The notes under the pieces: generated by a model
What the model saw: the letters and a program-made list of their open reading frames with translations, nothing else
Told to the model about the DNA's origin: nothing
Databases searched by the model: none
Virus genome (UHGV): UHGV-0129770
Source of the DNA: a virus
Strand: one strand, 5' to 3'
DNA: 45,743 nucleotides
Made by a program: the position numbers and the translations under genes
In this document: positions 11,544-27,171 of the stretch, one piece after another
How the letters are laid out: each line of letters begins with the position of its first letter
Numbering within the stretch: the first letter of the stretch is position 1

Positions 11544-11623
11544 GGCACCTTAGAAAAACGGGTGCCGGGATTGGAACCCCGGATAATGTCAAAGGCGACA
11601 CAGACGCCGAAAGCGTCTTTTTT
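11544..11623 (+). ncRNA. candidate c4-like antisense regulatory RNA (about 80 nt)
   Basis: Three hairpins: CGGCACC/GGTGCCG; CCGGG-loop AUUGGAAC-CCCGG; AGACGC-cgaa-GCGTCT followed by a T-run at 11618..11623. The loop is complementary to GTTCCAA at 11726..11732 in the downstream leader. Confidence 0.4.
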
Positions 11624-11808
11624 GTGTCATGCCATCGCACAGCCATACGTAGCGTTTAGCTCAGAGATCAATGGTAGTGCTGGCTGGGCTGCCGAAAGGC
11701 AGGCCGGTTCCCTTTGACGCCGGTAGTTCCAACCCAGTCAGTGCTACCGCCATTGAGATTGGAACCTCACGCGGTAGCTCCTTAACTTAGTCAAAGGAGG
11801 CTGCCAAT

Positions 11809-21574: not shown

Positions 21575-22224
21575 AGCGTAGAGCGCAAATTGTTGGAACT
21601 GTGCACCCGGCAGGGCTTATGCGTGCTCAAGTCCGTGTTTTACCTGACTGGAATGGCGTTCCTGATGACGATCTACCCTGGGCGGAATACCTGTTACCCA
21701 TCGGAAACGCTTTTGTACCCACAGTCAAAGGTGACCTGGTCTGGGTAGAGTTTCCTTATTTAGATGTTAACGGTCGAATAGACACCAGACGCCCAATGAT
21801 AGTTGGTGCCGCTCAGGATGCACCGGGAGGAATTCCAAACGTTGCACCAGAAGCATCTGGCAAAGGCAACGGCTGGACGCCGCCGGAAGTAGATGGAGCG
21901 CCTCCCCGCCCCCAAATCTCAGCAACGAAAGACTTCGTTATTCACCGCAACAATATTCTTGAAGTACGAACTGCTGGTGGCGGCTATGAAATTGCCAATA
22001 CGGCTGCAGGCTCAAGGATTGGCATGAATGAGTCCGGGCAGATATATATCATTGGTCCGGCTGATGTAATCGTGAATGCAGGAGGGAGTGTTAACGTCAA
22101 ATCAGCCAACAACATCAATGTTAAAGGGGAAAATATTGCTGTCTCCGCTAACGGAGACATAGCTTTCAAGGCAGGAGGAACCTTTCAGGCCACTGCTAGC
22201 AACTTCGATTTCAAGAAAGGATAG
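21571..22224 (+). CDS. baseplate spike-like protein (gpV/gp5-type N-terminal domain, C-terminal beta-helix repeats)
   Basis: N-terminal AQIVGTVHPAGLMRAQVRV...DLVWVEFPY and C-terminal repeats VNVKSANNINVKGENIAVSANGDIAFKAGG. Confidence 0.45.
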   Translation: MKRRAQIVGTVHPAGLMRAQVRVLPDWNGVPDDDLPWAEYLLPIGNAFVPTVKGDLVWVEFPYLDVNGRIDTRRPMIVGAAQDAPGGIPNVAPEASGKGNGWTPPEVDGAPPRPQISATKDFVIHRNNILEVRTAGGGYEIANTAAGSRIGMNESGQIYIIGPADVIVNAGGSVNVKSANNINVKGENIAVSANGDIAFKAGGTFQATASNFDFKKG

Positions 22225-22241
22225 AAAACGCACCCATTTAT

Positions 22242-22269
22242 GTTAGATAATTAATATGTATTTTCTAAC
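22242..22269. promoter_or_regulatory. operator-like inverted repeat GTTAGA-N16-TCTAAC (site C), upstream of rdgC
   Basis: Part of a 13-bp perfect palindrome CATTTATGTTAGA / TCTAACATAAATG; 15 nt upstream of ATG 22284. Confidence 0.5.
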
Positions 22270-22283
22270 ATAAATGGTGAGAC

Positions 22284-23189
22284 ATGAGATCAGTCGCTTT
22301 CAAAAATATCTTCATCTATCGTCTTTCACGCGAAGTTAGCTGGGATACTGCAGAAGTAAATGCAGCCCTTAGCAAGTTTGTGTTTACCCCATGCGGTTCT
22401 CAGGATATGGCTAAAGCTGGTTGGACCCCCGTTCTTGGCGACAACCTCACCCATGAATACCAGGGTTTTCTTCTGATGCAGCATAAACGAGAGGAAAAAA
22501 TCCTACCTTCTCAAGTACTCAAAGAAGAGTTACAGAAAAAAATCCTGAAACTTGAAGAAGAGCAAGACAGAAAGCTGAAGAAGACCGAAAAAGATTCGCT
22601 GAAGGATGAAGTGCTTCACTCTCTTCTTCCTCGCGCTTTCACGAGAAAATCAGTAGCTAAAATCCTGATAGACCGAAGCAATCATCTGGTTTTTGTCGAG
22701 GCCAGCAGTGCTAAAAAAGCAGAGGATCAGCTGGCTTTGTTACGGAAATCGCTTGGCAGCTTGCCCGTTGTCCCCTTCTCTCCGAAAGACCCATTAGAAC
22801 TGACCATCACTGGCTGGATTAAAAATGGCTTCCCGAACGGTTTCCGTGCCGGTGAGGAAGCGACCTTAAAAGCATTGCTTGATGATGGCGGCGCGGTCCG
22901 CTGCAAAAAAGTGGACCTGCTATCCGACGAGATCATGAGTCATATAGAAGCTGGTAAGGTTGCAACCACAGTTGCGGTTAACTGGCAAGACCGTGCATTT
23001 TTCAGACTGAATGACGATATGAGTATCAAGGCTTTGTCGTTCAGCGACGAATTGTACGACCAGAACGACGATATTGATCGAGAGGATGTTGCGCAACGAT
23101 TTGACGCTGACTTTATCCTGTTTACTGCTGAATTATCCGCGATGTTCACTTCGCTAGTGGAGGCCGTTGGTGGTGAAGCAGAACGTTAA
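22284..23189 (+). CDS. rdgC: recombination-associated protein RdgC homolog
   Basis: Long colinear matches to E. coli RdgC as I recall it: [87 protein letters not shown]. Confidence 0.85.
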
Positions 23190-25461
23190 CCTTAGATATG
23201 GTTCAGTTTGCAGTGGAATTGAAGCAGCGAGCATTGCCTGGGAACCGTTGGGTATGCGTCCGGCGTGGTTTGCTGAAATCGAGCCTTTTCCATCTGCCGT
23301 TCTTGCGCACCGCTGGCCCCATGTCGCCAACCTTGGCGATATGACAAAACTTGCCAAAAAAGTCCTGGCTGGGGAAATCGAATCCCCTGATGTGCTCGTC
23401 GGGGGAACACCTTGTCAGGCATTCAGTATCGCTGGATTACGTGGTGGGCTTGATGATGAGCGTGGCGCGCTAACTTTAAAGTATGTGGAGCTTGCAAATG
23501 CAATTGACGACAAACGGGCTGAGTCATTTCTCAAACCAGCCGTTATCGTCTGGGAAAATGTCCCAGGAGTCTTGTCATCGGCAGATAACGCCTTCGGATG
23601 TTTCCTTGCCGGATTGGCTGGAGAAGATGCGCCATTCGAACCAGGTGCTCGACCTGAATCACGAAAAAGTAACGCGTTCTGGCGGTGGGATGTCAAAACC
23701 AGTTGCCATGCTCCAAAGTGGCCGCAGTGTGGTTGTATTTATGGACCGCAGCGAAAAGTGGCCTGGAGAATCCTTGATGCCCAATACTTCGGAGTGGCAC
23801 AACGACGCCGACGCGTGTTTGTTGTCGCAAGTGCTCGAACAGACCTCGATCCCGCAACGATACTTTTTGAGTTCGAAGGCGTGCGCCGGAATATTGCGCC
23901 GAGCCGAAAAAAGAAGGAAATCGCTTCCGCCATTATTGCAAATGGCGCTGCAATCAGTGGCGAAAGCCTAAATCCATGCCTACACGCTGACATGCCCCCC
24001 GGTATGAAATCGACGAAAGCCGTAAACGCTTTCAGGATGGCGGCATTTGGGGAATATATTGACGATGAAACCGCATCGACAGTAAAGGCAAGAGACTTTA
24101 AAGATGCCACTGACCTTGCCGTTTTTAGCAGCACAGGAGCAGGTTTTTGGTCAGAGGGGCATGGTACATTGCGGGCGCGTGAGCAAGAAAGCCATGAGCA
24201 TCTTGTTACATTAGCTTTTCCTGAGCGTATGAGCGGTACACAACATGCTGCAACTAAGAATACTTCACCATCTCTAATGGCTCAAAATCCAACAGCCGTT
24301 TGCTATGAAGTAAGAAACGCAGAAGTAGCTGTCCGCCGTCTTACCCCTGTCGAATGTGAAAGGCTGCAAGGTTTTCCTGATGGGCATACGTTGATCCCTA
24401 CGGAAAAGCGTAAAACAATTTCCTCAGATGAACTGGCATACCTTCGCAATCACTATCCAGATTTAAGCGAAGAAGAAGCCGCGATGCTCGCTGCTGACGG
24501 GCCGCGTTACAAAGCGATTGGCAACAGCATGGCAGTTCCTGTTATGCAATGGATTGGGTGTCGCATTCTTGCGACTGTGGAAGCTAAACAGCCAAAAACA
24601 ATAAATACCATTACCTACACAAGAAAACTCCGGACTCCGGATGAATATGAACGTCCGATCTTCAAATGGGTAGGCGGTAAATTCTCAGAGTTGCCTACAG
24701 TGCTTGAGCATCTACCACACGGCAAGCGGTTAATAGAACCGTTCGTTGGTGGCGGTTCTGTATTTACGAATGCAGGATTTCGCCACAACCTGCTTAATGA
24801 TATTAACGGTGACCTGATTAACTTCTATCAGACATTGCAGCGAGAAGGACATTCGCTCGTCACGCTGTCATATAGTTTTTTCCAAAATTACAACAACGCT
24901 GACGCTTACCTCGAAGTGCGTGAGGCATTTAACAGAGGAAAGTATGACCAGCTACATCATGCTGCCGCCTTTTTGTACCTTAATCGGCACTGTTTTAATG
25001 GCGTAACGCGGTACAACCAAAATGGCGAGTTCAACGTGGGGTATGGCAAATACAAAGCGCCCTACTTCCCACATGCAGAGATGGAGGCATTTTTGGCTGA
25101 TGACGTACTCAAAAACACGTCCTTTGTATCAGGTGACTTTGCTGGCGTCATCGAGGCGGCTGGTGAAGGCGATGTGATTTTTTGCGATCCGCCGTATGAA
25201 CCGCTGCCGGATACAGAAGGGTTTACCAGTTATTCAGGAAATAGCTTCCGTTTCGACGAACAGAAACGGCTGGTATCTCTATTGGTGGAAGCCCACCAGC
25301 GCGGCGCTAAGGTAGTGATTACAAATAGTGGTGCGCCAAACATCCGTGAACTATATGAAGGAAACGGGTTTAAAGTACATCATATGGCAGCCAGACGGTC
25401 GGTTTCCTGCAAGGCGTCAACACGTGTAGTTGCTAACGATATAATTGCAATAATGAAGTAA
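23167..25461 (+). CDS. bifunctional DNA methyltransferase (N-terminal C5-cytosine domain, C-terminal Dam-like N6-adenine domain)
   Basis: C5 motifs [27 protein letters not shown]; Dam-like [21 protein letters not shown]; no adjacent restriction endonuclease. Confidence 0.8.
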
Positions 25462-25464
25462 AAA

Positions 25465-25492
25465 ACGCCGCAGTAGCGGCGTTTACTTTTTT
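25465..25492. terminator. bidirectional intrinsic terminator shared by the methyltransferase and glnS
   Basis: ACGCCGC-agta-GCGGCGT with an A-run upstream and a T-run downstream. Confidence 0.7.
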
Positions 25493-25509: not shown

Positions 25510-27171
25510 TTAACCTAACTTCGCCCAAGTATCACGCAGCCCAACGGTGCGGTTAAATACCGGTTTTTCCGCCGTGGAATGGCGGCTGTCGAGGCAGAAA
25601 TAACCTTCACGCTCAAACTGGAATGCTTTACCCGCTACCGCTTCTTTCAGCGACGGTTCAGCAAAGCCCTGTTTGATCACCAGCGATTCCGGGTTAATCA
25701 CCGACAGGAAATCATCCGCAGCACCTGGGTTAGGCACGCTGAACAGACGGTCATACAAACGGATTTCAACCGGCAGCGCATGTGCCGCGCTCACCCAGTG
25801 AATAACACCTTTGACTTTACGACCATCTGCCGGATCTTTGCTTAAGGTGTCGGCGTCATAAGTACAGAAGATGGTGGTGATATTGCCTTCGGCATCTTTC
25901 TCCACGCGTTCTGCCTTAATGACGTAAGCATTACGCAGACGCACTTCTTTACCCAGCACCAGACGTTTGTACTGCTTGTTAGCTTCTTCGCGGAAATCGG
26001 CGCGATCGATCCAAATCTCACCGCTAAACGGCACCTGACGGCTGCCCATTTCCGGTTTGTTCGGATGGTTCGGCATGGTAACCATTTCGCCTTCGCCCTG
26101 ATAGTTTTCGATAACCAGTTTCACCGGATCGATAACCGCCATTGCGCGCGGCGCATTTTCGTTGAGATCTTCACGGATGCAGGATTCCAGCGACGCCATC
26201 TCAATGGTGTTGTCCTGCTTGGTCACGCCGATGCGTTTGCAGAACTCACGAATAGAAGCCGCAGTGTAACCACGACGACGCAGACCGGAAATGGTCGGCA
26301 TACGCGGGTCATCCCAGCCTTCAACGTGCTTGTCGGTCACCAGCAGGTTCAGCTTACGCTTGGACATCACAGTGTATTCCAGATTCAGGCGCGAGAATTC
26401 GTACTGGCGCGGGTGAACAGGAATGGTGATGTTGTCCAGCACCCAGTCGTACAGGCGACGGTTGTCCTGGAACTCAAGCGTACACAGAGAGTGCGTAATA
26501 CCTTCCAGCGCATCGCTGATGCAGTGGGTGAAGTCGTACATCGGGTAGATGCACCACTTGTTGCCAGTCTGGTGGTGTTCAGCAAATTTAATGCGGTACA
26601 GCACCGGATCGCGCATCACGATAAACGGCGAAGCCATGTCGATTTTCGCACGCAGGCAGGCTTTACCTTCTTCAAAACCACCGGCACGCATTTTTTCGAA
26701 CAGCGCCAGGTTCTCTTCAACGCTGCGGTCGCGGTACGGGCTGTTTTTACCCGGTTGCGTCAGGGTGCCGCGATATTCGCGGATCTGTTCCGGCGTCAGT
26801 TCATCAACGTACGCCAGGCCTTTATTGATCAGTTCGATCGCATAGGCGTGGAGCTGATCAAAATAATCGGAGGAGTAACGGACGTTACCAGACCAGTGAA
26901 AACCTAACCACTCTACGTCGTTTTTGATCGACTCAACATACTCGATATCTTCTTTTACCGGGTTAGTGTCGTCGAAACGCAGGTTGCACTGGCCTTTATA
27001 GTCCTGGGCGATCCCGAAGTTCAGGCAGATAGATTTCGCATGGCCAATATGCAGATAGCCATTCGGCTCCGGCGGGAAACGGGTGTGTACTGTGGTGTGC
27101 TTACCACTGGCCAGATCTTCATCGATGATCTGACGAATAAAGTTAGTCGGGCGGGCTTCTGCCTCACTCAT
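25510..27171 (-). CDS. glnS: glutaminyl-tRNA synthetase
   Basis: 553 aa; class I HIGH (PNGYLHIGH) and KMSKS-type (VMSKR) motifs; matches enterobacterial GlnS almost residue for residue from memory; C-terminus here ends ...TWAKLG. Confidence 0.9.

Follow-up and report, generated by a model that had tools for sequence, protein, structure and literature searches.

The dmt locus and its product

The 45,743-nucleotide stretch of DNA analysed here (UHGV virus genome UHGV-0129770, in the following called the window) carries on its + strand a gene, dmt, whose product joins a C5-cytosine DNA methyltransferase (MTase) to a Dam-like N6-adenine MTase. As the initial annotation supposed, the gene is located on a phage-plasmid: the window is D6-like, belongs to the P1 family, and is 99.9% identical on the DNA level to the E. 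coli plasmid p13ZX28-90, which is complete and 94 kb in size. The gene order is that of phage D6, in which tail and baseplate genes are followed by hrdC, the methylase gene or genes, and then by the convergent glnS and by parA-like and parM genes.

In the open reading frame (ORF) listing of the window the dmt frame extends maximally from the first TTG codon at 23167 to 25461 and comprises 764 amino acids (aa). The likelier start is GTG at 23173, which gives a protein of 762 aa and is favoured by a GGAGG sequence at 23159-23163 as well as by RefSeq, which annotates this start in the 99.9%-identical plasmid. All positions of amino acid motifs below refer to the 764-aa numbering. The earlier description of a single 764-aa polypeptide which combines a full set of C5-MTase motifs with a Dam-like N6-adenine domain is borne out by the ORF, by Pfam and NCBIfam, and by the positions of the motifs. 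Its implication that the gene is an uncharacterised oddity did not hold. The gene is an orthologue of phage P1 dmt, the profile PHROG 116 covers both halves of the protein, and the exact 762-aa protein is already deposited publicly from 73 contigs. Because the PHROG 116 profile (779 positions) matches both halves, the fusion architecture represents an established phage protein family.

The features of the P1-family Dmt proteins are all found here, namely an N-terminal C5-MTase and a C-terminal D12/Dam domain, collinearity with the P1 protein over the full length, and a position downstream of hrdC/rdgC on a P1/D6-type phage-plasmid. Judged by its sequence, the gene is an ordinary member of the described P1-family Dmt (double DNA methyltransferase), in the form of a mosaic allele. 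Matches to the dmt gene are present in 602 plasmid records, nearly all of them non-mobilizable Escherichia/Salmonella plasmids of ~90-100 kb, and in P1-family phages too. A match to the gene is also encoded by 569 of 5426 complete E. coli genomes (about 10%), and 11 of them contain the full mosaic form. As found, the gene matters little, being already catalogued as a phage-plasmid methyltransferase. RefSeq labels the protein as a Dam-family enzyme only, a naming which conceals the cytosine module. P1/D6-type phage-plasmids spread resistance genes, and Dmt probably determines both how competent they are for packaging and how well they resist restriction by the host.

Mosaic origin and comparison with P1 and D6

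A three-way protein alignment with P1 and D6 divides the protein into two parts of different origin. Residues 1-465 are ~96% identical to the C5 half of P1 Dmt. Residues ~490-764 are 100% identical to Orf63 of D6, a stand-alone Dam protein of 301 aa, and ~70% identical to the Dam half of P1 Dmt. The breakpoints between the lineages were mapped on the DNA level by 60-nt sliding identity versus D6 and P1. The window is D6-like up to 22640, P1-like (92-100%) from ~23190 to ~24540, and again D6-like (97-100%) from ~24680, which places the recombination breakpoints at ~23185 and ~24550-24650. The second one falls into the inter-domain linker on the + strand (24559..24660), with P1-like sequence up to ~24540 and D6-like sequence from ~24680. 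As far as the alignments go, dmt is shown here to be a P1-type C5 module which recombined in frame onto a D6-type Dam (24680-25458), taking the place of orf64 of D6.

The similarity to P1 Dmt (dmt, formerly P1 dam; YP_006537, 754 aa) comprises the order C5 MTase, linker and Dam, collinear over the full length, the location of hrdC/rdgC upstream with an overlapping start, and an identical variable region made up of the four cassettes J-B-C-I, which are described below. In contrast to P1, the Dam half in the window is the D6 allele and the linker is unrelated. The window also has neither the uhr gene nor the C1 operator/Pdmt upstream, and dmt comes after the baseplate genes as in D6. Moreover, dmt is followed by the convergent glnS, whereas P1 dmt is followed by the ban/tRNA region. 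With phage D6 the window shares both flanks (hrdC upstream, glnS downstream) and a Dam sequence which is identical from residue ~490 onwards. D6 differs in having two separate methylase genes, orf64 and orf63, and in encoding a 226-aa orf64 product in place of the 465-aa P1-type C5 module.

For the locus as a whole we regard as the likely explanation a mosaic Dmt of a D6-like, P1-family phage-plasmid, in which two independent DNA methyltransferases were brought together in one polypeptide by module exchange.

Two observations were made beside this comparison. The 5' half of rdgC is 97-100% D6-like, while in its 3' half (22640-23180) identity falls to 60-85% with D6 and is 37-77% with P1. Being neither D6-like nor P1-like, the 3' half points to a third parental lineage and to a clustering of breakpoints around the methylase locus. 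The orf64 product of D6 (L003:4253-4933) contains PPC and ENP motifs and is assigned to PHROG 757 'DNA methyltransferase' (E=4e-78), with no match in Pfam or NCBIfam. It gives the impression of a minimal C5-like methylase in which no target-recognition domain (TRD) can be recognised.

The C5-cytosine methyltransferase half

The cytosine half is assigned to Pfam PF00145 (C5 DNA methylase, E=7e-37), where the match is split by a long insert, and to NCBIfam TIGR00675 dcm with 120 bits, which is above the cut-off. The N-terminal part of the catalytic core (23173..23934, + strand) is supported by the motifs, by an AlphaFold2 (AF2) model and by Foldseek. It includes motif I at 23197-23232 (aa 11-22), motif IV with the catalytic cysteine in PCQ at 23401-23436 (aa 79-90), motif VI with ENV at 23548-23568 (VWENVPG, aa 128-134), and motif VIII (QRRRR) at 23800-23826 (aa 212-220). 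The remaining motifs are found on the same strand in the region 24334..24558, motif IX at 24334-24390 (from aa 390) and motif X with GNS at 24508-24558 (from aa 448). The motifs follow the canonical order I, IV, VI, VIII (QxRxR), IX and X, with motif I in the form of a subfamily variant, CSGIE.

In a phmmer search against the Protein Data Bank (PDB) the C5 half matched M.HhaI (E=2e-10) and also M.HaeIII, with motifs I-VI, VIII, IX and X aligned. An AF2 model based on 122 diverse representatives reached a pLDDT (predicted local distance difference test) above 90 for residues 1-240 and 385-470. A Foldseek search of the PDB with this modelled core returned M.HhaI first (E=5e-11, template modelling score normalised to the target, TM(target), 0.62) and M.HaeIII second (E=8e-10), followed by DNMT3 and DNMT1. 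In the predicted structure, the C5 core is of the M.HhaI-like catalytic fold.

It has to be asked if this half is active. One alternative is that the Dam half alone is functional and that the C5 half is a dead relic or a mere DNA-binding or targeting domain. Several points speak in that direction and against an active cytosine enzyme. Motif I is atypical, since CSGIE departs from the classical FxGxG. The GenBank record of P1 dmt reads 'bifunctional DNA methyltransferase; methylates DNA at N6 adenine in GATC sequences and perhaps at C5 cytosine' and thus qualifies the C5 activity with a 'perhaps', and the RefSeq name refers to the Dam family only. In the literature we found no paper which reports Dmt-dependent 5-methylcytosine (m5C), a C5 specificity of Dmt, or multispecificity. 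However, PCQ, ENV, QxRxR, motif IX and GNS are all intact, and a check of the catalytic motifs for inactivating substitutions revealed none in the C5 or the Dam motifs. Across the 122 diverse relatives the atypical motif I hardly varies: S11, C13, S14, G15, I16 and E17 are conserved to at least 90%, as are PCQ, ENV, QxRxR and GNS. The ratio of nonsynonymous to synonymous substitution rates (dN/dS) between the window and P1 is low across the entire C5 half: the core gives 0.15, the variable region 0.12 and motifs IX-X 0.11, values which show purifying selection. In addition, many relatives carry an intein exactly at the catalytic cysteine, and its excision would restore PCQ. Nothing in these data suggests decay of the C5 half. 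We infer that it is probably an active m5C methyltransferase and consider a dead C5 half to be quite improbable.

Exchangeable cassettes between motifs VIII and IX

The variable region between C5 motifs VIII and IX is 151-170 aa long in the window and consists of four cassettes of ~30 aa each in the order J-B-C-I, all on the + strand. Cassette J (23935..24033) has the core NPCLHAD and was found, among the sequences examined, only in P1-type Dmt. Cassette B (24034..24126) has the core ASTVKAR, with a weak likeness to the E. coli Dcm TRD core TLSARYYKDG. The cores of cassette C (24127..24213) and cassette I (24214..24300) are HGTLRAR and SPSLMAQ, respectively. Each block contains one core of the form [P/H/G/S][T/C/S][L/V/I]x[A/S/T]. 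A TL dipeptide is conserved in the target-recognition domains of C5-MTases, and the cassette cores recall it.

We compared 80 IMG/VR loci and database relatives and defined reusable blocks of ~28-40 aa, which were labelled A to Q (a library of 17 cassettes). Length variation is essentially confined to the region between motifs VIII and IX. In sequences which contain both landmarks, the distance between FEFEG and RRLTP ranges from 69 to 284 aa, while the flanks are 95-100% identical. The VIII-IX regions of the IMG/VR loci and their close relatives fall into 17 sequence clusters which differ in their cassette make-up. The architecture J-B-C-I is common to the window and P1. Others are D alone (n=18), A-B, D-H, A-D-H and A-D-F-G, and longer ones such as A-B-C-E-F-G, A-B-C-E-F-H, A-D-I-F-H-O and A-B-C-I-K-M.

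The same picture emerged from a wider sample. An exhaustive HMMER search gave 5699 representatives (50% identity clusters) at E<=1e-30, of which the best 150 were taken; 131 of these had recognisable motifs VIII and IX. In these 131 representatives the length of the VIII-IX region ranges from 88 to 439 aa (median 239 aa), and TL-like cores are 5.6 times denser in it than in the remainder of the same proteins. With the 17-cassette library 91 different architectures were distinguished among them. Each of the cassettes B, C and I is also found apart from the others, and their order varies; J is restricted to the P1 type. An unsupervised all-against-all BLAST comparison gave a modal length of 30-39 aa for shared blocks, and for 61% of the blocks the position shifts by more than 25 aa from one protein to another. 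Cassette B alone (~32 aa) turns up as an isolated block in phage MTases that are otherwise unrelated; the C5 MTases in question come from Vibrio, Aeromonas, Providencia, Morganella, Pseudomonas, Serratia and Pectobacterium phages, and the block is 60-85% identical in them.

When the cassettes were aligned to the TRDs of M.HhaI and of E. coli Dcm, only the pair of B and Dcm stood out. The core of B against the Dcm TRD core TLSARYYKDGAEILI gave z=3.1 against shuffles (p~0.014). Cassette B may be directed to a Dcm/EcoRII-like target of the CCWGG type, which we take as a lead and not as an assignment.

A parallel is provided by a group of multispecific C5 MTases from Bacillus phages (M.SPRI, M.Phi3TI, M.Rho11sI, M.H2I, M.SPBetaI, M.phiBssHII), which contain tandem TRDs for one target each (PMC8936443, PMC12707154). 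Like these orphan enzymes of temperate phages, the proteins discussed here have one core and an enlarged VIII-IX region with tandem short modules which vary between related phages. At least two tandem modules of TRD size are present, and in natural relatives single modules can be swapped or missing. In contrast to the Bacillus phage enzymes, the window enzyme comes from Gram-negative hosts and is fused to a Dam domain, and its multispecificity is a hypothesis from sequence. A tblastn search with the cassette region had no Bacillus phage among its matches, the SPR/phi3T/SPbeta proteins themselves not having been aligned directly.

The resemblance of the cassettes to target-recognition modules suggests that more than one cytosine target is recognised. 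In its strongest form this means that P1-type Dmt is multispecific, with J, B, C and I as independent TRDs, so that four m5C motifs would be methylated in addition to N6-methyladenine (m6A) in GATC. The family would then be a large and as yet undescribed combinatorial multi-TRD class from phages with Gram-negative hosts, with cassette shuffling and repeated fusion to different adenine methylases. We put this forward tentatively. The TL-core pattern is degenerate, and the pLDDT of the 122-representative AF2 model is only 34-53 for residues 250-380; due to this low confidence there is no structural support for each cassette as a separate TRD. Both points count against the multispecific interpretation.

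They leave room for the view that the C5 half is monospecific, with the four cassettes forming one composite TRD. This TRD would recognise one site only, perhaps a long or degenerate one, and a change of cassettes would alter that specificity without bringing in further targets. The absence of separate folded units in the cassette region of the AF2 model would fit, as would the adjacent position of B and C in several architectures (A-B-C..., J-B-C-I). In M.HhaI, too, two recognition loops cooperate within one TRD. A composite domain is less easily reconciled with the 18 natural Dmt variants in which the single cassette D suffices between motifs VIII and IX, or with the occurrence of B without C, of C without B and of I alone, in changing order and position. 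Every cassette contains exactly one TL-like core. The VIII-IX region, with its median of 239 aa and up to 439 aa, goes far beyond a monospecific TRD, given ~100 aa for M.HhaI and 121 aa for Dcm. We therefore regard a monospecific C5 half as rather unlikely.

Under the mosaic Dmt explanation the C5 half would mark the DNA of the phage-plasmid via cassettes J-B-C-I at short cytosine motifs, more probably several than one, and DNA marked in this way would be shielded in advance from Type II restriction when it enters a new host. Should the cassette reading be true, the family would provide, in compact form, a natural library of portable modules for C5 recognition and would offer an explanation for how phage-plasmids cross restriction barriers. 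Multispecific enzymes of this kind would be the counterpart, in phages with Gram-negative hosts, of the Bacillus phage SPR/phi3T enzymes. The family-wide cassette combinatorics might be the sole part of the present observations that is possibly new.

Inteins and other fusions among the relatives

Many P1-type Dmt homologues contain an intein (Pfam Hint_2 and LAGLIDADG_3), inserted as GGTP|C...HN|CQAFS; the copy in the window is free of it. The insertion site is immediately before the catalytic cysteine of motif IV, which becomes the +1 extein residue. Inteins are carried by 15 of the 80 IMG/VR loci (L062, L064-L069, L071-L073, L076, L077, L079, L081 and L085), and also by the proteins P0095 and P0096. 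The P0096 cluster has 3523 member sequences, and P0095 looks like a mini-intein which has lost its endonuclease. A literature search found no paper on an intein in P1-like methylases.

Two further IMG/VR loci, relatives with 66-70% identity in the C5 core, differ in their domain arrangement. In L078 the same multi-cassette C5 core is fused to PF05869 (T1-type Dam) and not to PF02086, and in L059 a TRD-like cassette is located after motif X, between the C5 and the Dam domain. From these arrangements it seems that fusions of C5 and N6-adenine MTases were formed more than once.

The N6-adenine methyltransferase half

The Dam-family N6-adenine MTase domain (D12, alpha-class) is encoded at 24661..25458 on the + strand, as supported by Pfam, NCBIfam, motif positions and alignment to Dam structures. 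It contains FKWVGGK at 24661-24681 (aa 499-505), the S-adenosylmethionine (AdoMet) motif at 24736-24765 (aa 524-533) and DPPY at 25186-25197 (aa 674-677). The DNA-recognition hairpin lies at 24979-25056 on the same strand. The domain is assigned to Pfam PF02086 (D12/Dam N6-adenine MTase) with E=2e-55 over aa 501-745. With 245.9 bits versus a cut-off of 114.85 for NCBIfam TIGR00571 dam, and with the DPPY and AdoMet motifs in place, it is a member of the Dam family. For the E. coli Dam equivalog NF008152 it scores 237 bits versus a cut-off of 441, which makes it a family member and not the orthologue of the E. coli enzyme.

Over its whole length the Dam half can be aligned to E. coli Dam structures (E=1.5e-58); it shows 39% identity to E. 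coli Dam over 270 columns, and also matches DpnM (E=2e-46). It shares with the GATC-specific D12 class (E. coli Dam, T4 Dam, DpnM) the full-length homology to E. coli Dam, the DPPY motif and an AdoMet motif of the FxGxG type. It differs from E. coli Dam in its fusion to a C5 MTase, in its score below the equivalog cut-off and in the residues L122V, P134G, Y119F and R137K. The roles of the GATC-contacting residues in E. coli Dam reportedly go back to work of Horton and colleagues from 2006. Among the DNA-contact positions K9, N120, R124 and Y138 are conserved, while Y119F, P134G and R137K are changed as in the P1 enzyme. L122V is the sole difference from the P1 enzyme at these positions.

According to the initial annotation the specificity of each domain was unknown. 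For the adenine half this does not hold, since the orthologous P1 enzyme methylates GATC and the specificity can be predicted from it. As the contact residues are either conserved or changed as in the GATC-specific P1 enzyme, with the exception of L122V, the Dam half very probably methylates the adenine in GATC. It should be borne in mind, as a point to the contrary, that a few Dam-family enzymes recognise sites other than GATC.

A role in self-protection or epigenetic regulation, as proposed in the same annotation, is reasonable; for the Dam half, though, the role documented in P1 is the control of packaging. Methylation of GATC at pac is required for P1 packaging, and dmt is essential in Dam- hosts (PMC12707154). 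P1 Dmt controls the cleavage of concatemers (PMC7253447). By homology to P1, GATC methylation by the Dam half would allow the pacase to cleave replicating phage DNA, and the DNA to be packaged, independently of the Dam capacity of the host. In the pacA gene of the near-identical plasmid, which is outside the window, the only GATC cluster lies in the 5' third of the gene (L004:9860-10010) and comprises 5 sites in 132 nt. Its position is comparable to that of the P1 pac site; there is no conservation of the P1 hexamer TGATCA/G. A GATC cluster of equal density occurs by chance inside glnS. Because clusters of that density also arise by chance, the pac link for the D6-like element is an extrapolation, and this weakens the packaging argument.

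Gene neighbourhood and transcription signals

The gene upstream of dmt is an rdgC/hrdC homologue (22284..23189, + strand; Pfam PF04381, E=6e-102). It overlaps the dmt start by 17-23 nt, in the same order as hrdC-dmt of P1. Downstream, the full-length glutaminyl-tRNA synthetase gene glnS (window 25510-27171, - strand) is 98-99% identical on the DNA level to chromosomal E. coli glnS. Plasmid-borne copies of glnS number 81 in the complete E. coli genomes. Its conservation as cargo in D6-like phage-plasmids was noted before (PMC6799933).

With these two neighbours the statement that no restriction endonuclease is adjacent to the gene is correct. The possibility that Dmt is the modification subunit of a restriction-modification (R-M) system, with the nuclease gene at another place on the element, could draw on the Gene Ontology term 'DNA restriction-modification system', which RefSeq attached to the protein, and on P1, which carries the Type III EcoP1I system elsewhere in its genome. 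For a Type II system a cognate endonuclease gene neither adjoins dmt nor is annotated elsewhere on the complete, 94-kb near-identical plasmid, for which the PLSDB gene tables are incomplete. Membership in an R-M system was rejected on the gene context and appears extremely improbable. P1 Dmt is likewise regarded as an orphan enzyme (PMC12707154, PMC7253447).

The intergenic region 5' of rdgC-dmt (22222..22275, + strand) contains a weak sigma-70-like site, TAGAAA-18-GATAAT, and a perfect 12-bp inverted repeat, ATTTATGTTAGA / TCTAACATAAAT. The arms of the repeat (22236-22247 and 22264-22275) are 16 nt apart and bracket the -10-like GATAAT just 5' of the rdgC Shine-Dalgarno sequence. The region may serve the rdgC-dmt unit as promoter/operator or, alternatively, could form an mRNA hairpin controlling rdgC-dmt. 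The 12-bp repeat was also considered as a recurrent operator-like motif and rejected, with 7 loose matches in the window versus 4 expected. The P1 C1 operator ATTGCTCTAATAAATTT was not found in the window at up to 3 mismatches, and control by Op68/Pdmt in the manner of P1 is therefore not transferable to the window, where expression control differs from that of P1. A bidirectional intrinsic terminator at 25463..25484 is common to the convergent dmt and glnS genes. We infer from this arrangement that dmt is probably cotranscribed with rdgC and that the transcript would end at the bidirectional terminator.

Elsewhere in the window, two Rfam families were detected on the + strand, isrK at 11545-11623 (62.7 bits) and C4 antisense RNA at 11667-11754 (77.1 bits), and these two matches indicate a P1/P7-type immI (c4-icd-ant) immunity region.

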